Source of the DNA: Kiritimatiella glycovorans
GTDB taxonomy: Bacteria; Verrucomicrobiota; Kiritimatiellia; Kiritimatiellales; Kiritimatiellaceae
Reading direction: 5' to 3'
DNA: 32,000 nt
Assembly: GCF_001017655.1 (NCBI RefSeq)
Contig: NZ_CP010904.1
Span: forward strand, 1,860,001 to 1,892,000
Shown here: one piece after another, positions 1,518-32,000 of the stretch
Layout of the letters: every line of letters starts with the position of its first letter
Numbering within the stretch: position 1 is the first letter of the stretch
The notes under the pieces: model-generated
What the model was told of the DNA's origin: nothing
The model's input: the letters and a program-made list of their open reading frames with translations, nothing else
The model's database searches: none
Made by a program: the position numbers and the translations under genes

Positions 1518-1612
1518 GGCCGCGCAGCCTGCCCGCATTGCCCGCCCGCAACGCTGGCGCGTAGCGACTGCGGGCAGGCTCCGCAAAGCGATGTAGGCGG
1601 GCGGCCAAATGA

Positions 1613-4952: not shown

Positions 4953-5012
4953 TTGGTCATTGGTCATTGGTCATTGGTCATTGGTCATTGGTCATCAGTC
5001 ATCGGTCATTGG
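4953..5012. repeat. tandem TTGGTCA heptamer array (about 8.5 units)
   Basis: ttggtca x6, then tcagtca, tcggtca, ttgg. Fills the 54-nt gap between the ICMT-like gene stop (4995) and the next gene start (4940). Confidence 0.9.
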
Positions 5013-5477
5013 CGACTTCCGCCGCGCGTATGGCAGAATCCGCGCCACGCGTTTCGAGTAGTCTCGGTACGCTTCGCCGTATTTCTCTGCAAGCCATGCC
5101 TCCTCGCCGGGCAGCACAAGCCGCAGCACGACATACATGATGAACGGGATCGCCAGGAGCAGCGGGTTGCGGAAGAACAGGACGAAGCCCGGCACGAGAA
5201 ACAGAATCCACGCCGCGTAGATCGGGTTGCGGCAGAGGGCGAAAACACCGCTCGTGCAGAGCGTCTCGGCCTGGTGCGCCTTTCTCAGCGTGATAGCGGA
5301 GATGAACCAGAACGGAATGCCGGCCAGCAGGATCGCGATGCCCGCGCCATAGAACCACCACGGTGAAATGGCTGTCACCACCAGCGATTCGCGGAACACG
5401 GCCGCGCAGACGACCACCGGCGCGGACGCCAGCAGGCTCCAGAGCAACCACTTGCCGCCTATTCCCCAAACCGTCAT
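4995..5477 (-). CDS. ICMT/PEMT-family membrane methyltransferase
   Basis: 160 aa, multi-pass. Motif region GVFALCRNPIYAAWILF...PGEEAWLAEKYGEAYRDY is typical of the isoprenylcysteine carboxyl / phospholipid methyltransferase family. Confidence 0.8.
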   Translation of the reverse strand: MTVWGIGGKWLLWSLLASAPVVVCAAVFRESLVVTAISPWWFYGAGIAILLAGIPFWFISAITLRKAHQAETLCTSGVFALCRNPIYAAWILFLVPGFVLFFRNPLLLAIPFIMYVVLRLVLPGEEAWLAEKYGEAYRDYSKRVARILPYARRKSPMTDD

Positions 5478-5490
5478 CTCTTTTCCTTCT

Positions 5491-5603
5491 GTCGGTCATA
5501 TGCGGCTGCGCCGCCGTCATTGGTCATTTGCGCCTGCGGCGCGTCATTGGTCATCAGTCAATGGTCAGTGGTCGGAACAACCAATGACTAATGACCAATG
5601 ACA
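5491..5603. repeat. inverted TTGGTCA heptamer arrays with embedded GC stem
   Basis: gtcattggtcatcagtcaatggtcagtggt-cggaacaa-ccaatgactaatgaccaatgac. Supplies VIGH plus the TAG stop of the ABC gene ending at 5588. Confidence 0.85.
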
Positions 5604-9698: not shown

Positions 9699-10207
9699 TC
9701 TTGATCCCTCCCTTGTTCAGGCGCATAGTCGCGTATACCGCGTTCCCGGGCCGTGTCGTCCGCCACTTCGTCCTGCCAGCCGGAACGGACGTTTTCGCGG
9801 AGGTCATAGCGGGCAATGAAGGGCTTGATGTCCAGGAGAGGCGTTCCATCGAGGATGTCGACATCCTCGACGTGCAGCGTGGTCCCTTCGACCGAGAGCA
9901 GGCGCACGACGCTGAATCCGATATGGTTGGGGCGGAACGGGGCGCGCGTGGCAAACACGCCGCGTTCCTGATCCTGCAGGTACGGACGGACCCGAAGCTT
10001 CACCTTGTCCGCGCGGTCAAAGCGATAAACCAGGTAAATATGAGAAAAACCTTCCAGGTCGAGGAGACCGTCTGCATACCTCTCCTCTACCGTGACCGTG
10101 CCGCGTATGCCCCTGGCGAAGACCGGCTGAATCGGCGTTTCTTTCGGTTTTCTGTGAGGGGAATGAATATGTCCGATGGGTTCTATGGTGTATCGTCCGG
10201 TGCTCAT
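9695..10207 (-). CDS. TsaA/TrmO (YaeB, UPF0066) family SAM-binding protein
   Basis: IGHIHSP...FSHIYLVYRFD...GVFATRAPFRPNHIGFSVVRL...DILDGTPLLDIKPF. ATG at 10207 with an ATGA overlap. Confidence 0.85.
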   Translation of the reverse strand: MSTGRYTIEPIGHIHSPHRKPKETPIQPVFARGIRGTVTVEERYADGLLDLEGFSHIYLVYRFDRADKVKLRVRPYLQDQERGVFATRAPFRPNHIGFSVVRLLSVEGTTLHVEDVDILDGTPLLDIKPFIARYDLRENVRSGWQDEVADDTARERGIRDYAPEQGRDQE

Positions 10208-10845
10208 TGTAATCTCCTTCCCCAGGTGCAAAGGGTTGGGGCTTCCGACGCGCCCCCATCATTGGGATTGTGCAAGATGATCTGCCGGACCTCGCTAAGC
10301 CCGGCCTTGGCAAAGCCGTCCGCGTACCGGGCTTTTGACCACATCTGCATGGGCACGCCCAGCCTTTCGGACCAGTCGTGGCTGGCGGCGTTTTCATGAT
10401 AGAGATCCACCAACACCCACAGCCAGCCGCCCGGTGCCAGCAGGCGCGCGGCATGGTCCAGCCCCTCCTGGATACTGGAGAAGTAGTAGAAGACTTCCAT
10501 GGAGAAAATGGCATCGAAGGTCAGCCCCTCACCCGGTTCCCAATTGATGAAATCGGCCGCTTCCAGTCGGACATTGCCCAGTCCGGCCGTGGTCTCTCTG
10601 GCCAGACGGATCATGCCCTCGCTCACGTCGATGCCCACGCATTGGCCGTCACGGTACTGGTTCGCGGCGATATGCCGCAGCCCCAGTCCGCACCCGCAGC
10701 CGACCTCCAGATAGTTCCCGTCGGAGTTCGGAATCATTTGCCATACCTGCCGGACGCGAGGCAGGTGGTTCTGCCACATTGGCCGTGCGCGGTCACCCGT
10801 TGCCCAGTGATCAAATAGTTGTGCTGCTGCATGACTATCGCTCAT
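10204..10845 (-). CDS. class I SAM-dependent methyltransferase (Methyltransf_11-like)
   Basis: SAM motif I YLEVGCGCGLG, then GIDVSEGMI and LLAPGGWLWV. Confidence 0.85.
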   Translation of the reverse strand: MSDSHAAAQLFDHWATGDRARPMWQNHLPRVRQVWQMIPNSDGNYLEVGCGCGLGLRHIAANQYRDGQCVGIDVSEGMIRLARETTAGLGNVRLEAADFINWEPGEGLTFDAIFSMEVFYYFSSIQEGLDHAARLLAPGGWLWVLVDLYHENAASHDWSERLGVPMQMWSKARYADGFAKAGLSEVRQIILHNPNDGGASEAPTLCTWGRRLQ

Positions 10846-11987: not shown

Positions 11988-12052
11988 CATGGTCAGTAGT
12001 CATCGGTCATCAGTCATTGGCGTGCCCGCCAGCTCCCAATGCCCAATGACCC
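11988..12052. repeat. inverted TTGGTCA-type heptamer arrays between two operons
   Basis: catggtcagtagtcatcggtcatcagtcattgg ... cccaatgcccaatgaccc, between the lipoprotein stop (12083) and the O-methyltransferase start (11962). Confidence 0.8.
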
Positions 12053-13587: not shown

Positions 13588-13614
13588 CTGTCATCTTCCC
13601 AAGGCTGTCGCGAA

Positions 13615-13691
13615 GATTCACCACGGAGACACGGAGACACAGAGAATTCGTCTCCTTGCTCCGCGCACTCTCCGTGCCTCTGTGGTTCAAC
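13615..13691. repeat. CACGGAG-type palindromic element (PAL-B)
   Basis: gattcaccacggagacacggagacacagag ... ctctccgtgcctctgtggttcaac, between the secretin stop and the pilT start. Confidence 0.85.
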
Positions 13692-15660: not shown

Positions 15661-15703
15661 ACTCATTCCCAATGCGTTATGCATGAACCGAGAAAGTCGG
15701 TTC

Positions 15704-15734
15704 AACCAATGACCAATGACTAATGACCAATGAC
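15704..15734. repeat. TGACCAA heptamer array
   Basis: aaccaatgaccaatgactaatgaccaatgac directly after the PilP-like gene stop. A GAACCGA-gaaag-TCGGTTC hairpin lies at 15685-15703. Confidence 0.85.
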
Positions 15735-15737
15735 TCT

Positions 15738-16223
15738 TCATCGGTATATCCTCACATCCTGCGGCCGGGTGCGCGGCGCGATTTCGATTTGACTGGCGGT
15801 CACCGATTTCACCAGCAGGTATAACTGCGCATCGGTCGCCCCCGCGGCGGCGCCGCCTCCGGCGGCACGGTCCACCTGAACGATGTCGCCTTCGCGGACG
15901 AAGTAGAGGTTCTTCACGCCGGGGATGGATATCGCACCCACTGGCTCTTTGCCGGCCACGGCCAGAATTCCCACTACGCGGATGCCTGGCGGAAGCGCGG
16001 CAGGTCCGGCGCTGACGAAGCCTTCGTCATCCGTCAGCCCCCGCATCGCAAACGGGTCGCCGGTCGGCATCCGGGGCGGAGGCGTAACCTCCGCCGCGGC
16101 GGTTCCCGCCGGCGCAGCCTTCTCTACCGCATTCGTCGCGACGCCAGCGGACACGCCGTCCTGCGCCATCGCCGGAACGGCAACGGCCCCCCATAGCCAC
16201 AGAAACCATATCGCTTGTTTCAT
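15738..16223 (-). CDS. PilP/GspC-like periplasmic pilus-assembly protein
   Basis: ATG at 16223 (MKQAIWFLWLW) with GGAG 7 nt upstream. Signal peptide, Ala/Pro linker, then the beta domain IRVVGILAVAGKEPVGAISIPG..YFVREGDIV. Confidence 0.5.
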   Translation of the reverse strand: MKQAIWFLWLWGAVAVPAMAQDGVSAGVATNAVEKAAPAGTAAAEVTPPPRMPTGDPFAMRGLTDDEGFVSAGPAALPPGIRVVGILAVAGKEPVGAISIPGVKNLYFVREGDIVQVDRAAGGGAAAGATDAQLYLLVKSVTASQIEIAPRTRPQDVRIYR

Positions 16224-16231
16224 CGTCTTCT

Positions 16232-16277
16232 CCAATCACTATTGACCAATCACCAATGACTAATGACCAATGACCAT
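16232..16277. repeat. TGACCAA heptamer array
   Basis: ccaatcactattgaccaatcaccaatgactaatgaccaatgaccatg, between the GspF/PilC stop (16281) and the PilP-like start. Confidence 0.85.
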
Positions 16278-16280
16278 GTC

Positions 16281-17516
16281 CTACCTCGCCGCCCGCGTGG
16301 CCGTCAGCACGGCCAGGTAGAACCCGAAATATACGAGCCCGACAAAGCCCCCCACCACAACGAATACGGCGGGTTCGACCAGTTTACTGAGCAACGTCAC
16401 ACGGCGGGTGAGCTGATCCTCCGAAAATCGGCCGACCTCCAGCAGACTCTCGTCCATGTGGCCGCCTTCCTCGCTGACGCTGACCAGCGTGTGCGCCATC
16501 GGCGTGAGCCGGTACAACTCCGTGGCCTCGATGCTCTTGCTCAAACTGGAACCGTCGCGCAGCATCGCGCGCACGCGCTCGAACTGCGCCGCGTAAATCC
16601 AATTGCTCATCGTGCCCCGCACGAGATCCACGGCCGCCAGCACGTCGAGGCCGCTGCCCAGCAGCGAACCCATCGTGGAACACCACATCGCGTTGGCATG
16701 GAAGCGCAACACACCGCCCAGCAGCGGAACCCGCAGCGCGATCGCGTCCACCCATTCGCCGGAACGCGCCGTGCGCCGCAAGGCCACCACAAGCACGACC
16801 AGCACCACCGGGGCGAGCAGGACATACAACCCGTACTCGGTCAGGAAACCGTCAAGCGCAATGACCATGCGCGTGGGCAGCGGCAATTCGACGCCTTTAC
16901 GGCTGGATTCGATGAACTTCATCACCGCCGGAAAGACCTTGCGCACCATGAACGCGCCAATACCCATGGCCGCCACGAGCACGACGGTGGGATAGCTGAA
17001 CGCCTGTAGAATCTGCTCGCGGGTCTTGCGCGCGCGCTCCTTGAGCCCCGCCGCATGCACGGCCATGGTGTCGAGCGTGCCGTTGGCCTCGCCCACGCCC
17101 AGCAAACCGATGGTCACCCGGTCGATCCCCGGCAGATTCTCGGCCAGGGCCTTGCTGAACGACTTGCCTTCGCGAATGCGTTCCGCCGTGTGCCGCAGCG
17201 CCTTTTGCATGGGCGGCGGGGCCGTGCGCGCCAGGGCGGTCAGCGCCGTGAGGATCGGCACGCCGGAACGCAGGAGCGAGCCGAGTTGCCGCAACACCAG
17301 CTCGACGCTGCTGGATCGGATCGTGATGCGGTCCAGCAGCCGTTCCAGGAACTTCGATTTCCCCGAACCCGTATGGCCGGCCGGCGCCGGGGCCAGCGAC
17401 AGCACGCTGGCGCCGTCGGCCCGCAGGCGTTCGGCCGCTTCGCGTTCCGATGCCGCCTCCAGCGTGCCTTCACGCCGTATGCCGCCCTGCAAAACGATGT
17501 AGCGGAATCCAGGCAT
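16281..17516 (-). CDS. type II secretion / type IV pilus platform protein (GspF/PilC family)
   Basis: 411 aa with two T2SSF-type repeats and three hydrophobic segments. The N-terminus MPGFRYIVLQGGIRREGTLEA is typical of the family. Confidence 0.9.
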   Translation of the reverse strand: MPGFRYIVLQGGIRREGTLEAASEREAAERLRADGASVLSLAPAPAGHTGSGKSKFLERLLDRITIRSSSVELVLRQLGSLLRSGVPILTALTALARTAPPPMQKALRHTAERIREGKSFSKALAENLPGIDRVTIGLLGVGEANGTLDTMAVHAAGLKERARKTREQILQAFSYPTVVLVAAMGIGAFMVRKVFPAVMKFIESSRKGVELPLPTRMVIALDGFLTEYGLYVLLAPVVLVVLVVALRRTARSGEWVDAIALRVPLLGGVLRFHANAMWCSTMGSLLGSGLDVLAAVDLVRGTMSNWIYAAQFERVRAMLRDGSSLSKSIEATELYRLTPMAHTLVSVSEEGGHMDESLLEVGRFSEDQLTRRVTLLSKLVEPAVFVVVGGFVGLVYFGFYLAVLTATRAAR

Positions 17517-19626: not shown

Positions 19627-19652
19627 GATGCCACTCCTGTTGGCTGAAAAGA

Positions 19653-19927
19653 ACTCACCACGGAGGCACGGAGGCACGGAGCCGACGCGCTGGGAATAGG
19701 CTGATTGTTCAAAGCTTCAGCAATGAACTCAGTGTCTCCGTGTCTCTGTGGTGAATTTGACGACGGGAGAGGGGGACTCACCACGGAGGCACGGAGGCAC
19801 GGAGCCGACGCGCTGGGAATAGGCTGATTGTTCAAAGCTTCAGCAATGAACTCAGTGTCTCCGTGTCTCTGTGGTGAACTTGACGACGGGAGAGGGGGAC
19901 TCACCACGGAGGCACGGAGGCACGGAG
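19653..19927. repeat. 123-bp tandem duplication of a PAL-B hairpin unit (2 full units plus a third left arm)
   Basis: Period of 123 bp confirmed by the 41-aa peptide periodicity in ORF 19623..20024. The units differ at one position by eye (gaatttga vs gaacttga). Confidence 0.9.
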
Positions 19928-19951
19928 AAGAGAAGACAAGAGAGGAGATTT

Positions 19952-20329: not shown

Positions 20330-20360
20330 TCCATCTCCTCTTCCGCGCCCCCAAACACTG

Positions 20361-20389
20361 CTCCGTGCCTCCGTGTCTCCGTGGTGAGT
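20361..20389. repeat. PAL-B right arm pairing with the left arm at 19899-19927
   Basis: ctccgtgcctccgtgtctccgtggtgagt is the reverse complement of 19899-19927 at 28 of 29 positions. Confidence 0.85.
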
Positions 20390-20392
20390 TCT

Positions 20393-21763: not shown

Positions 21764-21787
21764 GGCTGTTCTGACCTGTTATTCATG

Positions 21788-21861
21788 CTCACCACGGAGA
21801 CACGGAGGCACGGAGGAGAGATGAAGGGGATTCTCTCTGTGCCTCTGTGTCTCCGTGGTTG
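21788..21861. repeat. PAL-B palindromic element
   Basis: ctcaccacggagacacggaggcacggag - 19 nt - ctctgtgcctctgtgtctccgtggttg. Confidence 0.85.
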
Positions 21862-21886
21862 TTCTCTCTTCAACGGCATCATCATG

Positions 21887-22864: not shown

Positions 22865-23116
22865 GGAAAGCGGACGCTCACCACGGAGGCCACGCCTCCG
22901 GCGTGGTAAACACGGACCTTGCCACGCCAGGGGCGTGGGCACGGAGAAGCGTTTGCTATTCCTCGCCCTCTGCGGCACTCCGTGCCTCGGTGTCTCCGTG
23001 GTGAGTTCTTTGGAAAGCGGACGCTCACCACGGAGGCACGGAAACACGGAGAAGACTCTGCGCTTCCGCTCTCTCTGCGGCCCTCCGTGCCTCGGTGTCT
23101 CTGTGGTGAGTTCTTT
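22865..23116. repeat. two tandem PAL-B units
   Basis: Both units start ggaaagcggacgctcaccacggagg and end ctccgtgcctcggtgtct(c/t)cgtggtgagttcttt. The first unit carries an extra roughly 40-bp internal insertion. Confidence 0.85.
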
Positions 23117-23141: not shown

Positions 23142-23735
23142 TTACTCGTCGAACGTCAGTTGCCGTTTCAGCTCTTCGCGTTTCTCGGCGTTGAACCTCC
23201 CGCTGTTCGTGCTGGGGTACAGAAACAGGTTCGTGAATCCGGCGGACGGATAGTCGTTGCTCACCACCACCTCATACGGATCCCCATACGGGTCGAGCAA
23301 TGCGCGGTAGCCGGCAGCGTTGGTTCCTTCGGACACGGCATAGGGTCCGCGCCAGCCGCGGTTCTTCGCCAAGTCCCACTCTTCATAGCTAAAGAGCGAA
23401 GGTGAATTGGTGTCCGTTTGCGTCAGGAGCGGCGCGAGATCGACGGCGGCCCAGTCCGCCATGTTGGTTGGCCCTCCCGTAGCGAACTCGCAATGGTTGT
23501 AGAACCGGATGAACGTGCGCTGGATGTCGTACATCTCGCTCTGCACGACGGATTCCATCGATTTCTCCTTGTCGACTTTGAGCAAGGGGAGCATCAGGGA
23601 GGCCAGCGCGCCCAGCAGCCCGATCACGATCAACAGCTCGATCAGCGTGAAGCCGGAAGAGGCGCTTCGCGCCGTCATTGGCGATTGGTCATTCGTCATT
23701 CGTGAAGAGCCCAGTGCGTTTCGTGTCTTGTTCAT
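23142..23735 (-). CDS. GspG-like major pseudopilin / type IV pilin
   Basis: G|FTLIELLIVIGLLGALASLMLP, with GWRGPY and DPYGDPY as in GspG. The ATG at 23735 has GGAGG 7 nt upstream. Alternative ATG at 23678. Confidence 0.85.
   Translation of the reverse strand: MNKTRNALGSSRMTNDQSPMTARSASSGFTLIELLIVIGLLGALASLMLPLLKVDKEKSMESVVQSEMYDIQRTFIRFYNHCEFATGGPTNMADWAAVDLAPLLTQTDTNSPSLFSYEEWDLAKNRGWRGPYAVSEGTNAAGYRALLDPYGDPYEVVVSNDYPSAGFTNLFLYPSTNSGRFNAEKREELKRQLTFDE
23672..23704. repeat. TGACNAA heptamer array inside the prepilin leader-coding region
   Basis: The mRNA strand reads cacgaatgacgaatgaccaatcgccaatgacgg, encoding SRMTNDQSPMT. Confidence 0.75.
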
Positions 23736-23943
23736 GGTCTTGCCTCCATTGTTGCAACGCTGTTCTTTCTGCTTTTGCCATCCGCGCGATGCACGCGGGA
23801 CAGGGATTGCCCGTCAGGCAGCCCGTGCAGCGACCGCCTCCGTCGCACCGATGGTCGTGGTGATCGCGGTGATCGTCGTCCGGCGCTTTCCCGTCGGGCT
23901 CGCGCTCGCTATCGTATCTCTCTGCTATCATGAGTTTCTCCAA
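23689..23943 (-). CDS. doubtful small His/Asp- and Cys-rich ORF
   Basis: 84-aa ORF with DDDHRDHHDHRCDGGGRCTGCLTGNPCPAC. GC-rich third positions, but no SD was seen and it overlaps the 23735 pilin start by 47 nt. Confidence 0.2.
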   Translation of the reverse strand: MEKLMIAERYDSEREPDGKAPDDDHRDHHDHRCDGGGRCTGCLTGNPCPACIARMAKAERTALQQWRQDHEQDTKRTGLFTNDE

Positions 23944-23949
23944 ACCTGG

Positions 23950-24019
23950 ATTTCACCACAGAGGCACGGAGGCACAGAGTTCAATCTCTGCTCCGTGTCT
24001 CCGCGCCTCCGTGGTGAAT
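23950..24019. repeat. PAL-B palindromic element
   Basis: atttcaccacagaggcacggaggcacagag - short loop - ctgctccgtgtctccgcgcctccgtggtgaat. Confidence 0.85.
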
Positions 24020-24059
24020 CTTCTCTTCAGTTGTTCTGTAGGACCTCTGGCAGTCCCTT

Positions 24060-24090
24060 CCAATGACTAATGACCAATGACTAATGACCA
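24060..24090. repeat. TGACCAA heptamer array
   Basis: ccaatgactaatgaccaatgactaatgaccag, ending 2 nt before the thioredoxin stop codon (24093). Confidence 0.85.
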
Positions 24091-24092
24091 GT

Positions 24093-24596
24093 TCAATGAT
24101 GCTCATGTCCGTGTCCATGGTGATCGTCCGTGTGGATGAAGGCGGCCGCCGCGATGTGAGGCCGCAGCCATTCCTTCAAAGCGTTGTCGTCCTGGTAGCC
24201 CAAGCGTCGATCAGTGGACTTGCCGCCGACATAGAGGCGCGTGTCCGGTATGGCCTCCACACCGCTTTCGCGGGCGAGAGCCCTGTGAGTGTCCGTGTCG
24301 ACCAACACAACACGCATGGTGCCCGGCAAGGCGTCGGCCAGGCGATGCAGATTCGGCTTCAACGCCCGGCAATGGCCACATGCTTCGCCCCCATAGCTCA
24401 CCAATACAAGGGGCGTACCGGTCAGCAGATCGTCCAGATTCGCGTCTTCGGCCAGCTCCACGACGTGCGCACTGGGAACCACCTCGCGCGCGGCCTTCTG
24501 CCGGTGCAACTGCACAACGACGATCACCGCGAAGGCGACCGCCGTGATCACGAGGATGCGGACGGCGCGGAACAGGATGCTTTTCTTCGTTGTCAT
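24093..24596 (-). CDS. membrane-anchored thioredoxin-fold protein with CGHC active site and His-rich tail
   Basis: N-terminal anchor ILVITAVAFAVIVVV with a basic cytoplasmic side. VLVSYGGEACGHCRALKP, cis-Pro region EAIPDT, C-terminal HTDDHHGHGHEHH. Confidence 0.8.
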   Translation of the reverse strand: MTTKKSILFRAVRILVITAVAFAVIVVVQLHRQKAAREVVPSAHVVELAEDANLDDLLTGTPLVLVSYGGEACGHCRALKPNLHRLADALPGTMRVVLVDTDTHRALARESGVEAIPDTRLYVGGKSTDRRLGYQDDNALKEWLRPHIAAAAFIHTDDHHGHGHEHH

Positions 24597-24605
24597 TTCA
24601 TCAAC

Positions 24606-25742
24606 TCACAAACTCTCAGGCTTTTCCGGGCCGCCATTCAGGATCATGAAATAACTGTAGTCTTTCCGGGCATGGCGCCCCAGGAGGTCTTTGACGAGTC
24701 CCTGCCGAATCTGGCTCATCTCGTCCTTTGGAAGCGTTCCGGGGTTCGTTTTCCCTTCGAAGAAACGTTGCAAACGGGCCTTGGTGTCGTCATCGTAGGT
24801 GAAAACGATTCGCTTCCCGTCAGATAGCCGTTCGGCGAAAAAGACCATCGCCTTCGGCGAGGGGCCCAGAACGCCACGCTCGCGGGAAAGCCGACGGCCT
24901 AGAATCAGTTCAAACGCATCCCAGATGCCCCCCATCTTTCCTTTGCATTCGATGCGCAGATCGTCCATCAGCGGCACTTCGTCGCCGTACAGCTCGCGAA
25001 TGGCGAAATCCATGGCCAGGAATCCGCTCAGTGCGCCAGGGCAAAGCCCCGCCTGAGGCAGTTCGAAATCCACCCTCTTGCCGGCCTTGACCTTTTCCTC
25101 TGCCACGGCCACGAGGGCGCCCATTTTACTCTGGGCATGGTACTGCAGGCATTGCATCAGGGAGGTGGTTCGCACCATACCGAGGACGTTCCTGACCGAT
25201 ACCGTCTTGTCCGCCAGCAACCGTTTAATCTCCTCCGTGAAATGCGCCTTCAACGGAAGCGTCCATTGCGGATGCAAAATCAGATCAGAACTTTCGGACG
25301 CAGTTTCACCGAATTTGGCGTCCGCGGCACCGGCCGGGATAATCGGGCTTGCCAGAGCGGACAACTCGGGCGCGGACTCACCGGCCTTCAGCACGATCCC
25401 ATCGCGTTCAACGGAATGTCCCGGTTCATCGTCGACAAAGCGGACCACATAGGGCTCCATCATCTTCGGGCACTGCAGTGCGCCTTCCGCGTTCAACGAA
25501 CCCTTCCACAGGACTTCGCCATTGGTCTTTGATTTCAACAGTATCGGCGCGCCCGCCCCCGATTCGCCGTCCGAAAAGCCTACGGTGACCGTGAACGTTC
25601 CATTCTCGTGGTCCTCGATCATCATCAGCGGCTTGTGGGCGTACGCTGTCGCGGCCAGCATGGCCAGAAGCAGCAACGGCAGGCCTCGGCGAAGTATTCC
25701 CTTGCCCGTGTTTTTGTATGGTTTCAGCACCTTAGTCTCCAT
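24606..25742 (-). CDS. secreted two-domain protein; C-terminal domain tentatively FmdE-like
   Basis: ATG at 25742 (METKVLKPY). Signal peptide LPLLLLAMLAATAYA|HKP. GLCPGALSGFLAMDFAI, then IECKGKMGGIWDAFELILG and KAMVFFAERLSDGKRIVFTY, resemble FmdE/FwdE family motifs. This comes from memory only. Confidence 0.6.
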   Translation of the reverse strand: METKVLKPYKNTGKGILRRGLPLLLLAMLAATAYAHKPLMMIEDHENGTFTVTVGFSDGESGAGAPILLKSKTNGEVLWKGSLNAEGALQCPKMMEPYVVRFVDDEPGHSVERDGIVLKAGESAPELSALASPIIPAGAADAKFGETASESSDLILHPQWTLPLKAHFTEEIKRLLADKTVSVRNVLGMVRTTSLMQCLQYHAQSKMGALVAVAEEKVKAGKRVDFELPQAGLCPGALSGFLAMDFAIRELYGDEVPLMDDLRIECKGKMGGIWDAFELILGRRLSRERGVLGPSPKAMVFFAERLSDGKRIVFTYDDDTKARLQRFFEGKTNPGTLPKDEMSQIRQGLVKDLLGRHARKDYSYFMILNGGPEKPESL

Positions 25743-25807
25743 TCTTTCAAGTGGTTGAGCGAGCGGGGCGGCCCGCGGCGGCCGCCCCGCCAACGCCTTT
25801 GGTTTAT

Positions 25808-26644
25808 CTATGGGTTCAGCGGCTTTCCGCACATTACTCCGATCAGTTTCGCGGGCTGGATCCCGTCCGTATCGTCGTCGTCCACCAGGAAGTGCGCGGT
25901 GTAGTAGGCGAAGTTGACCTCATTGCCGCCTTCGGCATCCTCCGTCGGCACGGGCGCCTGGCCCTCCATGGAGATACCGAGTTCGACGTTGCCCTTGGTC
26001 CAGTCGGTATTGTCACCGCTGCCGGCCTGCCAGTCGATGGTGGGCGTTACCCAGCAGGGAATGATGACCCCGTCACTGGCCCCGCCGTTCATGTCCGTGA
26101 CCCACTCGTCCAGCGCACGTCCTTCGAACGTGATCTTGCCCTTGCCGGTACTTCCGACGTGCGGCGTGAAGTGCTTGTGCAGCCACTGCTCGCCGTCGGG
26201 ATTGCAGGACATAACCACATAGTCGCCAACCGCCAGCGTTCGGGAATTGAAGCCGCTGTCATAGCAGAGGCTGGTAATTCCGGCCGCATTCAGCGAGGCG
26301 ACCATGTTCGTGGTCAACGGCTGAATCGATGCTGGCTTCGGCCCGCCCCCGTTGCTGATGTTGAACGCCATGGACTTCTGCATGCCGGGCATGCGTCCGC
26401 CGCTGGCCGCATTCGTCAGACCACTGTGCATGTCGTTGGGATATTTGCCCGTGATCTCTTCGTACTGGTACAGCGTGCGGATCGTGCCCGCCTTGTTGTA
26501 CTGGCTCACATCCATCATGGACTCCCGCCGATCGGCCGTGAGCTTAGGCAGGACGAGAGCGACCAGCGCGCCCATCAACCCGATCACGATCAACAGTTCA
26601 ATGAGCGTGAACCCGCTTTTCTTGTTTCGCTTCTTCGTATTCAT
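25808..26644 (-). CDS. prepilin-type N-terminal cleavage/methylation domain protein (pilin paralog B)
   Basis: MNTKKRNKKSG|FTLIELLIVIGLMGALVALVLP. GAGGAAAG SD. 4 Cys. The C-terminal ITPTIDW..GDN.DWTKG..FAYY..LNP block is shared with paralog A. Confidence 0.9.
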   Translation of the reverse strand: MNTKKRNKKSGFTLIELLIVIGLMGALVALVLPKLTADRRESMMDVSQYNKAGTIRTLYQYEEITGKYPNDMHSGLTNAASGGRMPGMQKSMAFNISNGGGPKPASIQPLTTNMVASLNAAGITSLCYDSGFNSRTLAVGDYVVMSCNPDGEQWLHKHFTPHVGSTGKGKITFEGRALDEWVTDMNGGASDGVIIPCWVTPTIDWQAGSGDNTDWTKGNVELGISMEGQAPVPTEDAEGGNEVNFAYYTAHFLVDDDDTDGIQPAKLIGVMCGKPLNP

Positions 26645-26664
26645 TCTGTTCTTTCCTCTGTTTA

Positions 26665-26740
26665 CCGATGACCAATGACCAATGACCAATCACTAATGAC
26701 CCATGACGCGCCGCAGGCGCAAATGACCAATGACCAATCA
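26665..26740. repeat. TGACCAA heptamer arrays flanking a small GC stem
   Basis: ccgatgaccaatgaccaatgaccaatcactaatgacccatgac-gcgccgcaggcgc-aaatgaccaatgaccaatca. Confidence 0.85.
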
Positions 26741-26745
26741 GGAGA

Positions 26746-26775
26746 GGCGCCGGGGGCGTGGAAGCCCCCGGCGCC
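26746..26775 (-). terminator. perfect 12-bp GC hairpin between the two pilin paralogs (terminator/attenuator candidate)
   Basis: GGCGCCGGGGGC-gtggaa-GCCCCCGGCGCC, 16 nt downstream of the pilin A stop. On the mRNA strand it is followed by tctcctgattggtcatt, only moderately U-rich. Confidence 0.4.
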
Positions 26776-26790
26776 GGGTTTGGGTTTACG

Positions 26791-27591
26791 TTACGGATTC
26801 AGCACGCCGCATTCAGGGCATGAGGTGCCGATCAGTCGGGCCGCTACTGCTGGAGCCTCGTCGTAGACCTTGAAGTAGGCCATGTAGTAGGCGAACTCCA
26901 CCTCTTCGCCGCTGGCCGCGGAGACCGGAATCGGGCACTGGCCTTCGAGGCTGATGCCGTAATTGACCGCACCCTTGGTCCAGTCGAGGTTGTCGCCGGC
27001 ACCGCCCGACCAGTCAATCGTCGGCGTGATCCAGAGGCACACCACTGTGCCATTTGTCGTATCCCAGCCAGGCGTACCGGTGGCGGTTTCCCAATCCGCG
27101 ACAGTGACGCCGTCGAACTGGTACTGCGCCGGCGTATCATCCAGCCAGTTGGTCGTGCATCGCGCAACGTGAACGCCGGCAGCCAAGTTTGTGACTTGAT
27201 AGCCAGTACCATAGGCAACCGTGTCGATACCCGCCGCGTTCAGCGAGGCCACTTCGTTCGTCGATAGCCCATAGCGGGTCGAGTCGATCTGACCGATCAT
27301 GTTGGTATGCTGCGCTTCCGGCAGCCCTTTAATAGCTGACGCCGTCGAACCCGTGCCATCCAGCCCGTTGTGCATGCCGTCGGGGTACTTGCCGAACATG
27401 TCCGCGTACTGATTCAGCACGCGGACCGTTCCGGCCTGGTTGTAGTCGCAAACGTCGCCCATGGCTTCTTCCCGATCCGCCGTGAGCTTGGGCAGGACGA
27501 GAGCGACCAGCGCGCCCATCAGCCCGATCACGATCAACAGCTCGATCAAGGTGAAACCACCCTGACCCTTCTTCGTCTTTTTCGTACTCAT
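26791..27591 (-). CDS. prepilin-type N-terminal cleavage/methylation domain protein (pilin paralog A, likely major subunit)
   Basis: MSTKKTKKGQGG|FTLIELLIVIGLMGALVALVLP. AAGGAAGAG SD. 6 Cys. First gene of the filament cluster. Confidence 0.9.
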   Translation of the reverse strand: MSTKKTKKGQGGFTLIELLIVIGLMGALVALVLPKLTADREEAMGDVCDYNQAGTVRVLNQYADMFGKYPDGMHNGLDGTGSTASAIKGLPEAQHTNMIGQIDSTRYGLSTNEVASLNAAGIDTVAYGTGYQVTNLAAGVHVARCTTNWLDDTPAQYQFDGVTVADWETATGTPGWDTTNGTVVCLWITPTIDWSGGAGDNLDWTKGAVNYGISLEGQCPIPVSAASGEEVEFAYYMAYFKVYDEAPAVAARLIGTSCPECGVLNP

Positions 27592-27856
27592 TCTGTTCTC
27601 TTCCTTCATCTTTCTCGGCACCATCATGGCGCCTTCGTTCTTGTGGACGGCTCCCGCTCGGTCAGCCCGCCCGATATGTCTTGCGAGTTCAATGGCGCGG
27701 GAACCGCTCCCGCAACCGATGTCTCACTCGATACGCAGCTCCTTTCCGGTCATGGCCGCCCCGCGCCTCGCGGGGCCGGCCTTCCACCGGCGTTCGTTTT
27801 CGCCTGTATTCTTCAACCCTGGCGGGCGCCACGCCCGCTCTGTATTACATCCTTGA

Positions 27857-27937
27857 GATTCACCACGGAGACACGGAGGCACGGAGAGAAATGCAGAGCT
27901 TCTCTCCTGTTCTCCGTGCCTCCGTGTCTCCGTGGTA
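27857..27937. repeat. PAL-B palindromic element
   Basis: gattcaccacggagacacggaggcacggag - 25 nt - ctccgtgcctccgtgtctccgtggta. Confidence 0.85.
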
Positions 27938-27941
27938 GGTC

Positions 27942-28181
27942 TCATTTTCTCCCCGGCCCGGTTTCTTTGCGCGGCGACTCGTGGCACGGGCATTCCTCGC
28001 CCGTGGGGCAATCGCACGGCACGACGAAGCGGTACTGCTTGCCGCACTTGATCAGCACTTCCTTCTCGTGCTTGCGCAGAAAACGGATCTCGATGCTCAT
28101 GTCGCCGTATCCGCTGTGCGCGAACAACATGCGATAGAGTTCCTCGATCCGCGCCAGCACGGCGTCATGCGACGATGGCAT
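27942..28181 (-). CDS. small protein with C-terminal CDC..CPC motif (weak YezD/DUF2292-like resemblance)
   Basis: 79 aa with AAAGGAG SD, 30 nt downstream of the DtxR-family gene. GYGDMSIEIRFLRKHEKEVLIKCGKQYRFVVPCDCPTGEECPCH. Confidence 0.55.
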   Translation of the reverse strand: MPSSHDAVLARIEELYRMLFAHSGYGDMSIEIRFLRKHEKEVLIKCGKQYRFVVPCDCPTGEECPCHESPRKETGPGRK

Positions 28182-28211: not shown

Positions 28212-28646
28212 TCATGCGTCGCCCCCTGATCCACCAGGCTCGCGCATGGGCGTTCCGTTCTTGTCATTGGCCGCGACGAACTCGAGCAGCCGGTCCGTGA
28301 CCTGCTTGGAGACCCCGTGCTCCAGACGGCAGGCCGTGGCATCGGCTTCTTCCTCCTCAACACCCAGCGTACCGGTGAGGAATGCCTTCCATGCCCCGTG
28401 CCGCCGCGCCACGCACCCAGCGACCTGCTCGCCTTCGGGCGTCAGCGTGACGTAGCCATACGATTCGTGTTCCACCAACCCCCGCTTCTGGAGCGCATGC
28501 AGCGCGCCGGAGACCGAGGACCGGCTGACGTTCAGCCGGGCCGCGATGTCCTTGGACCGCGCGACCGAACGCTCCCGCGTCAAGGCGAAGATGGCCTCCA
28601 GGTAGTCCTCCTGACTGCCGCTCACGCTGTTATTCGTTTCCTGCAT
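28212..28646 (-). CDS. DtxR/MntR-family metal-dependent transcriptional regulator
   Basis: SQEDYLEAIFAL, HTH ARSKDIAARLNVSRSSVSGALHALQKRGLV and VTLTPEGE are typical of the iron-dependent repressor N-terminal and dimerisation domains. ATG at 28646 (the track start at 28652 is TTG). Confidence 0.88.
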   Translation of the reverse strand: MQETNNSVSGSQEDYLEAIFALTRERSVARSKDIAARLNVSRSSVSGALHALQKRGLVEHESYGYVTLTPEGEQVAGCVARRHGAWKAFLTGTLGVEEEEADATACRLEHGVSKQVTDRLLEFVAANDKNGTPMREPGGSGGDA

Positions 28647-28685
28647 CGCCAATCCAATCTCCCGATGACCTTCCCGAAGGCGCTA

Positions 28686-28846
28686 GGCGCCGCCGCGCGA
28701 GTTCGTCGTTGCACACAGAGTGCGGCTAGGCGAACTCGCGGGGCCAAAAAAAGGCGCGTGCGCCGACCAGCATCTTTTCCGCCTTTCATGTTCGTCGCGC
28801 CAAACATAATACGCCCCGCCACACTACGTCAACAACTTTTTTTCAC
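28686..28846 (-). promoter_or_regulatory. promoter plus conserved leader module, copy 1 (upstream of the DtxR-family gene)
   Basis: On the minus strand: A-tract, TTGACG (28827-28832), TATTAT (28806-28811, 15-nt spacer), then a leader with hairpin 28699-28737. Near-identical copy at 31673-31830. Confidence 0.55.
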
Positions 28847-28869
28847 CTTTTTTCGACCGCTGCGTTTGC

Positions 28870-29006
28870 GTCATTGGTCATTGGCCATTGGTCATTTGCG
28901 GGCTTCGCCCACAGTCATCAGTCATTGGCAGCCAACGGAAAGCAATGACCCGCAACCAATGACTAATGACCATTGACTACTGACCAATGACCAATGACTA
29001 ATGACC
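28870..29006. repeat. long inverted TTGGTCA heptamer arrays
   Basis: gtcattggtcattggccattggtcatttgcggg ... cccgcaaccaatgactaatgaccattgactactgaccaatgaccaatgactaatgacc, ending 5 nt before the DUF2325 gene stop. Confidence 0.85.
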
Positions 29007-29010
29007 TCCC

Positions 29011-30180
29011 CTACGCCGCCCCCATCAGCACCGCTTCCAGCGCCGTCGGACTCGTCTCTCGCAGAGCCATGAATTGTCTTCCCGTCTTCTTGCACAGTCC
29101 CTTTACGACCTTCAGTGCGGAGTGGCTGTTGACGCGGGTGATGAAGATCACCAGGTCCGCCTGACACACCGCCGTCCTCAACCTGTGACAGCCGCCTTGA
29201 CAGTCGCCGTTATGGAAGAGGAACTGGCCGCCCATGGCTTCGACCACGCGGCGGTAATGCGGCTCCAAGCGATCCAGACCACCGATTACCGCAACGTGCA
29301 TGGCATCGAGCGGACAGGGATCTGCTCCCGAGGCGGCGCAATGGGCCAGTTCGGTTTCGCAGGCTGGAACGGCGCATGGCGGCGGCGGCTCCTCGCCGAA
29401 CGTGGGCGCGCCGGACTTGTCGGACAAGTCCAACAGATCGGACTCGGCCGGTGCTCCCGCAGACGTCATGACCGCAGGTTGCTGCCGCACTTCCTCCAAC
29501 TCATGCTCCAGAATGCGGATGCGCCTGAGCAGTGCCGCCTCGCGGTCCGGTTGCGCCTCCAGTTCGGCGATGCGCTGCTCGTGACGGCGGCAAGCGGCCT
29601 TGAGATCGTCCGATTCGCGCTCAGTTTGCCGGAGTCGCTCCCGGAGCGCGTCGGCCGCCGCCTTCTGCTTCGCCAAACTTGCCCGCGCCTTGTTCTCCGC
29701 CATCTCCGCGGCTTTCGCCTGTTCCGCTTCCCGCAGCGATTCCAGAGAGCGTTGACGGGAATCGCGGAAAGCACCGTAGGCGATCTGGTGAACAAGATAC
29801 ACGCCCAGGTGTTGGAACGACTCGCGGGGATCGGTGAGCAACGCCCACATGATTCCTGCCGGCGTCTGCTTGATCCAGTCTTCGAGCTGCGCCAGGATCC
29901 GATCCTCCGATCCCTCCTCCGTAGCCCTGACGATTTGGATGATCCGCGTGTACCGTTCGTTGAGGAGTTTGGTCAGGCGCTTCGGCAGCAGGCCGCCTTG
30001 CTCGTGACAGGCCTTGTGCAGCAGGTAGAAGCCGAAAGACGAATCAACACGCTTGCCCTGCTTGGAGAGATTGAACTTGCGGCAGAGCTTGCCCACGTTC
30101 TTTGCATCCAGAGCGAAGCCGAGGACCGTGCAGATGGCAATACAGTCCAGCGACCAGATGTGTTGATTGTCGTTGCTCAT
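29011..30180 (-). CDS. DUF2325 domain protein with N-terminal Cys-containing domain and central coiled coil
   Basis: C-terminus VAVIGGLDRLEPHYRRVV...ADLVIFITRVNSHSALKVVKGLCKKTGRQF matches my recollection of DUF2325. The centre is about 90 aa of E/A/R/K heptad-like sequence. The N-domain is paralogous to 4317..4940. Confidence 0.75.
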   Translation of the reverse strand: MSNDNQHIWSLDCIAICTVLGFALDAKNVGKLCRKFNLSKQGKRVDSSFGFYLLHKACHEQGGLLPKRLTKLLNERYTRIIQIVRATEEGSEDRILAQLEDWIKQTPAGIMWALLTDPRESFQHLGVYLVHQIAYGAFRDSRQRSLESLREAEQAKAAEMAENKARASLAKQKAAADALRERLRQTERESDDLKAACRRHEQRIAELEAQPDREAALLRRIRILEHELEEVRQQPAVMTSAGAPAESDLLDLSDKSGAPTFGEEPPPPCAVPACETELAHCAASGADPCPLDAMHVAVIGGLDRLEPHYRRVVEAMGGQFLFHNGDCQGGCHRLRTAVCQADLVIFITRVNSHSALKVVKGLCKKTGRQFMALRETSPTALEAVLMGAA

Positions 30181-30246
30181 GCGATCAGCCCAACGCGGCC
30201 TGCGGCCGCTGGACCGCAGCCCAAGAAATATCCTCGAATCCGCGAA

Positions 30247-30331
30247 GACTCACCACGGAGGCACAGAGGCACAGAAAACTCGCCTCCGCCCACCGCGCGT
30301 TCTCCGTGTCTCTGTGTCTCCGTGGTTCAAC
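30247..30331. repeat. PAL-B palindromic element
   Basis: gactcaccacggaggcacagaggcacag - 27 nt - ctccgtgtctctgtgtctccgtggttcaac, between the DUF2023 and DUF2325 genes. Confidence 0.85.
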
Positions 30332-30360
30332 TGTTTCTACATCCTGCGCTCTCGCGTGGG

Positions 30361-30738
30361 TCATGCGATCATCCTTTCCACGAATGGGGCTTCCTGGGGC
30401 GTACTCCGTGGCGGTTCGCCGCCGGCGCGCGCCCGCTGGAGATAGCGGTCGCACTGCTTGATGCGGTCGTAGCCCAGCATGATCCCGAGCATGAAGTCAT
30501 GTTCGGGGCTCAGGCTGGAGAGATTTTCGCAACCGATCCGCCGCACCACATCTACGCAAGCCGCATTGCCGAAGAACACGTTCACGCGGGTCTGTCCGAC
30601 CGGGCAGACGAGGTAGTCAATGCCGCATTTCCGCAGCTTTGCTTCCATGAACTGGCGTTGTTCGGCAGCCCCGGTGAAAAGCACCAGATTGCGCAGTCCC
30701 TTCCTGTATTCGTAGATGTGGTGCAGGAAGACCTTCAT
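30361..30738 (-). CDS. DUF2023 family protein
   Basis: True start MKVFLHHIYEYRKGLRNLVLFT at 30738 (1-nt TGATG overlap with the flavodoxin stop). About 125 aa, as in flavodoxin-linked DUF2023 proteins. Confidence 0.7.
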   Translation of the reverse strand: MKVFLHHIYEYRKGLRNLVLFTGAAEQRQFMEAKLRKCGIDYLVCPVGQTRVNVFFGNAACVDVVRRIGCENLSSLSPEHDFMLGIMLGYDRIKQCDRYLQRARAGGEPPRSTPQEAPFVERMIA

Positions 30739-31247
30739 CAGCTCATCCCCAGTTCCTGCTTGAGTTGCGTGACCCAGGCCGCGATCCGCGCGTCCGTCTG
30801 GCCGGCTTGGTTGTCGTCGTCGAGGACCAGCCCGACGAACTGGCCGTCGACGACGGCTCGCGATTCGCTGAACTCGTATCCGTCCGTGGCGCATGCGCCC
30901 ACGACGGTCCCTCCGGCCGCAATGGCCGCGTCGTAGAGGTCGCGCATGCCGTCAACGAAGCTGTCGCCGAATCCGTTCTGATCGCCGAGGCCGAAGACGG
31001 CAACCTTCTTGCCGGCGAGGCGCGCGCCCTTGAGCGCGTCGAGCGCGCCCACCCAATCGTCCTGCAAATCGCCGACGCCCCATGTTGACGTGCCGAGAAC
31101 CAGTACGTCCGGCTCGCTGAACGCGTTAGCGTCCGCGCCGCTGACATCGCGCGCCTCTGCTCCATCGCCCAGGGCGGCCGCGATCGCTTTGGCAGCACTA
31201 CCTGTGTTGCCGGTCGTGGATCCATAGAACACCGTGATCTTCTTCAT
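30738..31247 (-). CDS. fldA: long-chain flavodoxin
   Basis: MKKITVFYGSTTGNTGSAAKAIA is the FMN phosphate loop. STWGVGDLQDDW and FGLGDQNGFGDSF. 169 aa. AGGAAG SD. Confidence 0.9.
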   Translation of the reverse strand: MKKITVFYGSTTGNTGSAAKAIAAALGDGAEARDVSGADANAFSEPDVLVLGTSTWGVGDLQDDWVGALDALKGARLAGKKVAVFGLGDQNGFGDSFVDGMRDLYDAAIAAGGTVVGACATDGYEFSESRAVVDGQFVGLVLDDDNQAGQTDARIAAWVTQLKQELGMS

Positions 31248-31276
31248 CTCTGACTTCCTTTCTCGCTAGCTAGTTA

Positions 31277-31303
31277 TTTGTCATTGGTCATTAGTCATTC
31301 GTG
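31277..31303. repeat. TTGGTCA heptamer array in the flavodoxin 5' region
   Basis: tttgtcattggtcattagtcattcgtg, 30 nt upstream of the flavodoxin ATG. Confidence 0.8.
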
Positions 31304-31335
31304 CATCCATCTGACGAACAGGCTTTTTCCAACGT

Positions 31336-31642
31336 GGGTGGCTGATTGACTCAAATGACGGATGAACGGACGGGGAGCTTCACCACGGAGGCACGGAGAC
31401 ACAGAGAAGACTCCTCCGTTCCGTGCTCTCTTCCGGCCCAACCGTTGCGCGGATTTGCCACGGGGCGCGGTGGATCCTTGGGGCGGAAGTCTGTTTCCCA
31501 TCTGCCGCACGCCGTGGCAAATCCGCGCAACACACGGCGGGGAGGCGGCAGAGGAAGCTCCGCTGGCCCGCTCCCATCCGGAACTCCGTGCCTCCGTGTC
31601 TCCGTGGTGAATCCTCGCATCGCTTGAGTCAATCAGCCACCC
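31336..31642. mobile_element. MITE-like nested palindrome (outer 19-bp IR, PAL-B arms, inner 20-bp IR)
   Basis: gggtggctgattgactcaa (31336-31354) pairs with ttgagtcaatcagccaccc (31624-31642). PAL-B arms at 31378-31406 and 31583-31612. gttgcgcggatttgccacgg (31444-31463) pairs with ccgtggcaaatccgcgcaac (31512-31531). No target-site duplication was seen. Confidence 0.45.
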
Positions 31643-31672
31643 AGATTCCCCATTGCAAGAGGCGCTCCGTTC

Positions 31673-31830
31673 CGCCGCCGCCGCGAGTTTGCCGCCGCAC
31701 ATAGAGTGCGGCCAGACAAACTCATGGGGCCAAAAAACACGCCTGCGCCGTACCATGTCCTTTCCGCCTTTCATGTTCGTCGCGCCAAACATAATACGCC
31801 CCGCCGCACTCCGTCAAACGTTTTTTTCAC
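31673..31830 (-). promoter_or_regulatory. promoter plus conserved leader module, copy 2 (upstream of the flavodoxin operon)
   Basis: TTGACG at 31812-31817, TATTAT at 31791-31796, hairpin at 31685-31723. The 45-nt core is identical to copy 1. Confidence 0.55.
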
Positions 31831-31844
31831 TATCGTTCCATACG

Positions 31845-32000
31845 GGAAAGCGACACTCACCACGGAGGCACGGAAGCACGGAGAAGGCGCCGATCCTCCG
31901 TGCCCTCTTCCGGTTCAACCGTTGCGCGGAAAATACGCGCACCACTCGCCAGGGAGGAAAGGGGATAACCCGCAGTCTCTCTCCTGCCCGACACTCCGTG
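31845..32000. repeat. PAL-B element of the long-loop subfamily, truncated by the window end
   Basis: ggaaagcgacactcaccacggaggcacggaagcacggag. The loop shares cctccgtgccctcttccggttcaaccgttgcgcgga with the 31336-31642 element. The right arm begins at 31991. Confidence 0.7.

Follow-up and report, generated by a model that had tools for sequence, protein, structure and literature searches.

The 32,000-nucleotide stretch of the Kiritimatiella glycovorans genome considered here (contig NZ_CP010904.1, positions 1,860,001 to 1,892,000; hereafter the window) carries two diverged copies of a promoter module on its minus strand, one upstream of a flavodoxin (fld) operon and the other directly upstream of the gene for a DtxR-family metal-dependent regulator. 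Our analyses point to a segmental duplication of the promoter region of the fld operon, a region that is probably metal-responsive and most likely repressed by iron; we put the probability of this reading at roughly 60%. In both copies, an A-tract and a promoter with a palindromic box (box 1) are followed by a T-run and a longer palindrome composed of two further, weaker boxes (boxes 2 and 3). Counts of module copies and of K. glycovorans box sites refer to the 32-kb window, as do coordinates unless a locus of a relative is named.

The duplication had been claimed in a first-pass annotation of this DNA, and it is real: a repeat finder returned the same pair, and pairwise alignment from the A-tract (about 28846 and 31830) to approximately positions 28686 and 31672 gives a mean column identity of 82%. 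Based on the strand reading and the alignment, copy 1 occupies approximately 28686–28856 and copy 2 approximately 31672–31830, giving the module a length of about 165 nt; with the weaker similarity at its ends included, it reaches as much as about 190 nt. A 45-nt core, GGCGGGGCGTATTATGTTTGGCGCGACGAACATGAAAGGCGGAAA, is identical in the two copies, as the annotation had stated (28820–28776 in copy 1, 31805–31761 in copy 2). With about 18–20% divergence elsewhere, we calculate the chance of 45 identical nucleotides as 0.8^45, or about 4e-5 per start, and because such identity is unlikely to arise by chance, the core would be under constraint or a product of gene conversion. The least conserved part of the module is the segment between the core and the T-run, which holds a 1-nt indel, and the T-run itself, GGCCCC and CGCACTC are common to both copies. 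No third copy was detected in the window by the repeat finder (families D12 and D16), and blastn searches with both modules against the window and 113 fetched loci (designated by L-numbers; the relative L001 is metagenomic) returned no homologous module beyond the two copies. A scan of genome contigs with ATGTTYGKCGCGMCRAACAT produced 15 matches, in unrelated phyla and at a frequency close to our own estimate of about 17 expected by chance; the K. glycovorans genome was not among the matches.

The promoter, of the sigma-70 type, is arranged alike in both copies, with the A-tract preceding TTGACG; the −10 element is then either TATTAT, after 15 nt, or TATGTT, after 18 nt. The first of these pairings had been proposed previously and is present as described, but the promoter scan prefers the second and calls TTGACG-18-TATGTT in both modules. 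These two calls, one per module, are the only promoter-like sites that the scan finds between 27800 and 32000. In copy 1, the −35 hexamer lies at 28827–28832 behind an A7 tract, and the overlapping −10 alternatives lie at 28803–28811; in copy 2, the −35 hexamer is at 31812–31817. Box 1 is a 20-bp imperfect palindrome of the same sequence in both copies, ATGTTTG-GCGCGA-CGAACAT (28807–28788 and 31792–31773, minus strand), that overlaps TATGTT/TATTAT in an arrangement similar to that in relatives. The window has exactly two occurrences of it, where 0.00 are expected. A transcript starting 6–8 nt past the −10 element would begin inside the palindrome, which therefore cannot be a stem at the 5' end of the RNA. 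Lying over the −10 element and the likely transcription start, box 1 is positioned like a repressor operator, and we regard it as a candidate operator.

Other functions considered for the same DNA were rejected. A second promoter of the kind seen in locus L112 (T-run, TTGGCC, 17 nt, −10) is probably vestigial in K. glycovorans, where the corresponding hexamer, CGCACT, lacks the essential A2. A leader peptide (MFGATNMKGGKD or MKGGKD...) is at odds with a first ATG inside the −10 region, the lack of a Shine-Dalgarno sequence and the loss of frame after the indel; the alignment and a reading of the open reading frames bear out the earlier observation that the 1-nt indel leaves no common frame after MFGATNMKGGKD. 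A function on the plus strand was likewise set aside, as the downstream DNA has no plus-strand genes and the palindrome with its A-run is not a terminator.

Is box 1 peculiar to K. glycovorans? Comparison with related loci identifies it as an instance of a lineage-wide box, rGTTwG-N6-CwAACy, found in at least seven related lineages, at promoters of flavodoxin genes or feoB. In species A (L018-27, flavodoxin 79% identical), GTGTTAG-GCGCAC-CAAACTC stands just after a −10-like TATAGT upstream of fld, and in species B (L028, 82%), two to three boxes precede fld, including GTGTTTG-GCCTGC-CTAACAC and CTGTTTG-CCGTGG-CATACTG. The L112 locus (65%) has AAGTTAG-AGCAGT-CAAACTT and AAGTTAG-AGGCGT-ATAACTT upstream of fld and two more boxes upstream of another gene. 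In L035, a T-run and the box AAGTTTG-TCAAAG-CGAACAT directly precede a feoB-...-orf79-fld-DUF2023 cluster that adjoins a gene for a DtxR protein 59% identical to that of the window, and in L040, L076 and the L083 group, boxes overlap the −35 and −10 elements of consensus-like promoters of DUF3793-fld operons. A T-run followed 6–8 nt later by a box is a recurrent downstream feature (L028, L112 twice, L035, L040).

Matrix scans agree with this picture. With a matrix built solely from the boxes of relatives, the two module boxes rank first and second in the window at 17.5 bits, compared with 15.5 bits for the 95th percentile of shuffled-window maxima. The third rank falls to GAGTTTG-TCTTCA-CTAACAC (2146–2165), which matches GTTWG-N6-CWAAC at 2148–2163 with zero mismatches and is located in the intergenic region of a Fur-family gene and a ferredoxin gene. 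We extended the search with a matrix of all nine boxes to 432 kb of flavodoxin loci, obtained through a flavodoxin search of metagenome contigs and representing relatives of at most 58% identity; 19 sites exceeded 16 bits, compared with 2.25 +/- 1.4 in shuffles, and 15 of the 19 lie no more than 1 kb upstream of fld.

Several features of the loci that carry or lack the box are recorded here in their own right. The Fur-family gene (1613–2071, minus strand) and the gene for a 56-aa 2x[4Fe-4S] ferredoxin (2252–2422, plus strand) are divergent and have the third box in their shared intergenic region, and a cation-efflux (CDF) gene (2497–3447) adjoins the ferredoxin gene; the shared box suggests that ferredoxin and flavodoxin are controlled jointly or reciprocally. 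L112 has, at 7500–7535, a separate palindrome, TTAGGATGGCCTAATTAGGCCACCCTAA, that comes close to the classical DtxR/IdeR box. It precedes a gene for a second DtxR-family protein with a fused FeoA domain, and this organism may have two DtxR paralogues with different operators. In L110, where the flavodoxin is 69% identical, a classical Fur-box-like sequence, TGATAATGAGACTCAATCTCAATA, follows TTGACG at about 830–860, upstream of fld at 1162, and takes the place of the rGTTwG-N6-CwAACy box, which points to turnover of the fld regulator among members of the group.

The gene arrangement shows which copy is the derived one. Downstream of copy 2, all on the minus strand, are fld (30738–31247), the gene for a DUF2023 protein (30361–30738), whose start overlaps the fld stop codon, and the gene for a DUF2325 protein (29011–30180); copy 2 itself lies about 425–580 nt upstream of the flavodoxin start codon. 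Downstream of copy 1 are the DtxR-family gene (28212–28646), encoding a 144-aa protein with Pfam matches to Fe_dep_repress and Fe_dep_repr_C (E of 1e-15), and orf79 (27942–28181), which encodes a conserved small protein of the fld/dtxR operons of relatives. Both the DtxR-family protein and the flavodoxin show 100% identity to NCBI proteins of K. glycovorans. Between the DUF2325 gene and dtxR lies a 365-bp insertion that comprises module copy 1 and a palindrome of GGTCATT/AATGACC heptamer arrays (the remainder of the insertion, 28857–29010), with GGTCAT motifs at both ends. The insertion is absent in L001 and L113. In L001 (DtxR 72% identical), dtxR adjoins the DUF2325 stop codon directly, and orf79 comes next; in L113 (64%), a small open reading frame separates the two genes; and the order in L112 is fld-orf-DUF2023-dtxR. 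None of these three loci has a promoter module before dtxR. Because they keep dtxR distal in the operon with no internal promoter, copy 1 is derived and lineage-specific: by this comparison it is an insertion that split an ancestral operon and gave dtxR-orf79 its own promoter, which is probably autoregulated. The first-pass annotation mentioned neither this derived insertion nor a 309-bp nested palindromic element (31335–31643) in the fld leader, between copy 2 and the fld ribosome-binding site.

Which regulator and which metal would act through the box? Flavodoxin is the classical iron-sparing substitute for ferredoxin, and feoB, a TonB-dependent receptor, ExbBD/TonB and hemP are encoded near fld or dtxR in relatives. 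A DtxR homolog is embedded in box-controlled operons of several lineages. In three Bacteroidetes, iron depletion induces fldA-DUF2023 160- to 600-fold (PMC10434189), and the DtxR consensus TTAGGTTAGCCTAACCTAA contains the pentamers GTTAG and CTAAC (PMC7762939), which are also half-sites of the box. Because of the position of dtxR in box-controlled operons, the pentamers, the iron-related neighbors and the iron induction of fldA-DUF2023, we favor the DtxR homolog as the repressor and iron as its signal. Assigning iron over manganese from the protein itself was tried and abandoned: the best matches in the PDB are a mix of MntR, IdeR and DtxR structures, with MntR and IdeR at similar scores, all NCBIfam matches fall below their cut-offs, and the metal-site residues appear mixed. 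The proposal of common control of regulator and flavodoxin genes through a shared promoter and operator is supported by the box family at fld and feoB promoters, the nature of the downstream genes and the iron induction of fldA-DUF2023 (PMC10434189).

We propose the following model, in which the transcription start, repression, the metal and the identity of the regulator are inferred from sequence and comparison. A metal-bound dimeric repressor, most probably the DtxR-family protein encoded downstream, would sit on the box and block RNA polymerase, and the promoter would fire when iron becomes scarce. Farther downstream, the T-run and the two overlapping weak boxes would correspond to the T-run and one or two boxes that relatives carry there; in K. 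glycovorans, the two boxes are arranged as a 39-bp palindrome, such that the transcript could fold into a long hairpin. The ancestral operon would have been fld-DUF2023-DUF2325-dtxR-orf79, with dtxR regulated from the fld promoter. The 365-bp insertion, bringing in a copy of the promoter module next to the heptamer palindrome, would then have supplied dtxR-orf79 with a promoter of its own, leaving the regulator both autoregulated and co-regulated with flavodoxin.

The hairpin region deserves separate consideration since it had been interpreted as a structured leader or small RNA. Hairpins can form at the positions previously given (28737–28699 and 31723–31685), downstream of T-runs (T7 at 28746–28752 in copy 1, T6 at 31732–31737 in copy 2; minus strand) that are the positional homologs of the T-runs preceding the downstream boxes of relatives. 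Each 39-nt palindrome consists of two overlapping weak boxes, at 28718–28737 and 28699–28718 in copy 1 (outer arms GAGTTCG/CGAACTC) and at 31704–31723 and 31685–31704 in copy 2 (outer arms GAGTTTG/CAAACTC). The arms, GAGTTYG and CRAACTC, are themselves half-sites of the box; each 20-nt half of the hairpins scores as a weak box in the window scan (ranks 6, 7, 10 and 15), and the spacing from T-run to left arm equals the 6–8 nt from T-run to box in relatives. Predicted folding energies are −37 kcal/mol for the copy 2 hairpin (z = −6.1) and −29 kcal/mol for that of copy 1 (z = −3.1), and the whole copy 1 leader folds with z = −0.7. The window contains 54 clusters of 60-nt folds at or below −30 kcal/mol, a level that the copy 1 hairpin does not reach.

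A compensatory base change in the arms, which had been taken as a sign of RNA structure, does exist as a C-G/U-A pair (alignment columns 69/97), but it accounts for 1 of 22 predicted pairs, and three pairs are broken in copy 1, namely one C.A facing a U.G of copy 2 and two C.A in the inner stem, so that the copy 1 hairpin is degraded and the evidence for covariation weak. Nor did homologous leaders supply covariation: a covariance model of the T-run and hairpin matches only the two copies and the homologous segment of the closest relative, positions 166–226 of L028 (29 bits), where T-run, box 2 and box 3 stand at the identical 19-bp offset and the arms are not complementary. The hairpin is absent from six related leaders, and relatives with flavodoxins 65–82% identical do without it. 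A comparison with Rfam, which the first-pass annotation had suggested, gave no cmscan match anywhere in the window at gathering thresholds, and none on the modules at E values up to 10 over 28300–32000. The T-runs were tried as intrinsic terminators and rejected; the scan calls none there, the stems before them have 3–4 bp and are not conserved between the copies, and relatives have no stem before their T-runs. With no Rfam match, no conserved terminator, no hairpin in relatives and arms that coincide with half-sites, we see no support for a structured RNA or a small RNA. The simplest reading is that the region is a DNA-level operator array that, in K. glycovorans, either forms a long palindrome by coincidence or was remodeled into one.

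It is nevertheless conceivable, if unlikely, that the promoter and operator are as we propose and that the 39-nt hairpin with its U-run is in addition a functional element of the 5' leader RNA, a stabilizing or processing hairpin or an attenuator, selected in both copies. The copy 2 hairpin is among the approximately six most stable 60-nt folds of the window, one pair is compensated, complementarity reaches into the N6 spacers where a repressor has no need of it, and the T-run, GGCCCC and CGCACTC are kept between copies. Against these points stand the three mismatched pairs of copy 1 and its −29 kcal/mol, ordinary for this GC-rich genome, the lack of an Rfam match and of the hairpin in the six related leaders, the L028 segment that keeps the box positions and loses the pairing, the absence of a stable stem before the U-run or a called terminator, and a covariation argument based on two sequences only. 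A bolder version, which we consider quite improbable, holds that the box arrays (a box covering the −35 or −10 element, then a T-run and one or two more boxes at 19-bp spacing) are an undescribed iron operator architecture of DtxR-family regulators across Kiritimatiellota and relatives, and that the downstream pair was remodeled in K. glycovorans into a 39-nt palindrome also working at the level of RNA or a cruciform. Were it true, one sequence would be both repressor array and leader hairpin, explaining the compensated arm change. It is far harder to credit that each module is a gene for a short small RNA that is repressed by metal and stops at the T-run, in the manner of PrrF1/PrrF2. A promoter and operator are indeed followed about 45–55 nt later by a run of six to seven T, and there are two diverged copies in one genome; the segment before the T-run is, however, the least conserved and holds the indel, its 3–4-bp stems differ between copies, neither a terminator call nor an Rfam match was obtained, and the T-run of relatives, 6–8 nt upstream of a box, behaves like a promoter-proximal T-tract.

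The identity of the binding protein may also be questioned. If the box were the operator of the Fur-family regulator encoded at 1613–2071, fld and dtxR would come under Fur-type control, a prospect we consider doubtful. An autoregulated Fur would be expected to have a high-scoring box such as that in the fur-like/ferredoxin intergenic region, the ATGTT...AACAT ends are ones that we take to resemble Zur/Fur-type inverted repeats, and the Fur-box-like sequence upstream of fld in L110 points the same way. The box, however, co-occurs with dtxR in K. glycovorans, L035 and L112, dtxR lies inside fld/DUF2325 operons in L001, L113 and L112, and no fur homolog was found in the box-bearing loci of relatives; the GTTAG/CTAAC pentamers fit the DtxR consensus, and the spacing is unlike that of a 7-1-7 Fur box. 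Finally, the module might be a generic intergenic repeat of the REP or MITE (miniature inverted-repeat transposable element) type with no regulatory role, as the first-pass annotation had itself envisaged. The genome is rich in intergenic repeats, with heptamer arrays and CACGGAG palindromes occurring 10–17 times in the window, and both copies are embedded among them. The module, in contrast, has two copies in 32 kb, both with promoters oriented toward the genes downstream and carrying the only promoter-like sites of the region; other lineages keep its core box at their fld and feoB promoters, and the copies have neither terminal inverted repeats nor common flanks, all of which makes a mere repeat very improbable.

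A number of observations weigh against a duplicated iron-repressed fld promoter under DtxR control. Copy 2 lies about 545 nt from the fld start codon with the 309-bp palindromic element in between, and a promoter nearer to the gene is possible. The half-sites are separated by N6, compared with N1 in the classical DtxR/IdeR box, and in K. glycovorans they read GTTTG and CGAAC, not GTTAG and CTAAC; the 19-bp DtxR/IdeR consensus TTAGGTTAGCCTAACCTAA is not matched, the pentamers alone being shared, and mainly in relatives. The Fur-family gene also has a box in front of it, so that the binding protein may be DtxR or Fur-like. The metal site of the DtxR homolog is presumably mixed, with Asp at the position of DtxR Met10 and Cys at that of Cys102. 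The inner stem of copy 2 is complementary even in the N6 spacers, which goes beyond what an operator needs and is the single feature left unexplained by the operator-array reading; a secondary role as RNA or cruciform may therefore exist. Some circularity entered the box search, as some boxes of relatives were first noticed through their likeness to the K. glycovorans palindrome; the repeated boxes of L112 and L040 and the positional bias are not affected by it. Lastly, the K. glycovorans copy number and regulon evidence rest on a 32-kb window.

How does the proposed system compare with known ones? As with DtxR, IdeR and MntR repressors, some of them autoregulated, acting at the iron boxes of sigma-70 promoters, a DtxR-family gene is present in cis, the palindrome covers the −10 element and the likely start, there are several sites per promoter, the targets are iron-sparing and iron-uptake genes (flavodoxin, feoB), and half-site pentamers GTTAG/CTAAC occur as in TTAGGTTAGCCTAACCTAA (PMC7762939). 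Unlike in those systems, the half-sites are 6 nt apart instead of 1 and read GTTTG/CGAAC in K. glycovorans, whose protein is also short (144 aa) and lacks the SH3-like domain. The mechanism thus looks like DtxR control, yet the box is not a canonical iron box. The flavodoxin-DUF2023 pair, and its association in relatives with feoB, a TonB-dependent receptor and hemP, recalls the operon induced by iron limitation in Bacteroidetes (PMC10434189); the present operon differs in belonging to the phylum Kiritimatiellota and in the addition of DUF2325, dtxR and orf79, and its regulation is deduced from sequence alone. A further parallel is offered by prrF1 and prrF2 of Pseudomonas, tandem Fur-controlled units that are duplicated and metal-repressed. 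There too, two diverged copies of promoter and operator give two units one metal response, but the K. glycovorans units drive protein-coding genes, and no small RNA defined by a terminator is evident in them. With REP and MITE palindromes the module shares a GC-rich, intergenic hairpin in a genome full of such elements; it differs in having two copies, arms that are operator half-sites, a position homologous to the operators of relatives, and differing flanks.

The surroundings of the modules are themselves unusual. Arrays of the 7-nt unit GGTCATT/AATGACC (with TAATGAC variants), often in inverted pairs that form long palindromes, occur at many intergenic sites of the window (1475–1531, 4264–4352, 4956–5023, 5502–5582, 11992–12031, 15692–15748, 16218–16288, 23674–23713, 24046–24102, 26651–26707, 28870–29012 and 31273–31312), and similar heptamers are found upstream of fld or dtxR in L019, L028 and L001. 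Since the copy 1 insertion is bracketed by heptamer arrays, we suggest that these arrays may be recombination hot spots. A REP-like family of CACGGAG/CTCCGTG repeats (TCACCACGGAGGCACGGAGRCACGGAG) forms strong intergenic hairpins at 13603–13691, 19640–19930, 20335–20392, 21774–21866, 22940–23116, 23938–24022, 27845–27943, 30235–30333, 31365–31615 and 31842–31930, including a tandem 123-bp duplication at 19653–19898, and was the source of spurious weak microRNA matches in the permissive Rfam scan. Perfect 20-bp terminal inverted repeats (TGGGTGGCTGATTGACTCAA) bound the 309-bp element in the fld leader, whose arms are of the CACGGAG type and which contains an inner inverted repeat of 32 nt; it looks like a MITE-type insertion.

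Additional genes may belong to the same regulon. The orf79 family comprises small Cys-rich proteins of 79–94 aa (MPSSH..VLARIE.LYRMLF.HSGYG.MSIEI.FLRKHEKEVLIKCGKQYRF..., 79–90% conserved) that are always encoded within fld/DUF2023/dtxR operons (window 27942–28181, minus strand; L001 845–1042; L019 3509–3748; L035 3501–3716) and have no Pfam or NCBIfam match; orf79 is an uncharacterized member of a putative iron-limitation regulon. In K. glycovorans, species A and L040, prepilin-type (N_methyl/DUF1559) pseudopilin genes immediately follow the fld or dtxR operons, those of L040 with boxes in front, and genes for CBM96-domain proteins adjoin boxes in L112 and L002 (for both kinds of gene together, window 23142–27627; L018 2087–2908; L040 4740–5588; L112 7894–10036; L002 9656 and 10035–10598). 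These pseudopilin and CBM96 genes may be further regulon members. Literature searches on K. glycovorans together with flavodoxin, and on DUF2325 together with flavodoxin, turned up no relevant work.

What is the relevance of the duplicated module? It looks like an ordinary metal-repressed promoter, duplicated, and not like a new structured RNA, and it reveals no new kind of regulatory RNA. For the understudied phylum Kiritimatiellota, for which we found no operator motif of this kind described in the literature, it would provide a testable operator motif and a first sketch of a metal regulon that takes in flavodoxin-DUF2023-DUF2325-orf79, feoB, the fur-like gene with ferredoxin and possibly the pseudopilin and CBM96 genes. 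It would also represent a case of regulatory evolution in which an insertion split an operon and placed a duplicate of the operon's promoter–operator module in front of the regulator gene, preserving autoregulation.

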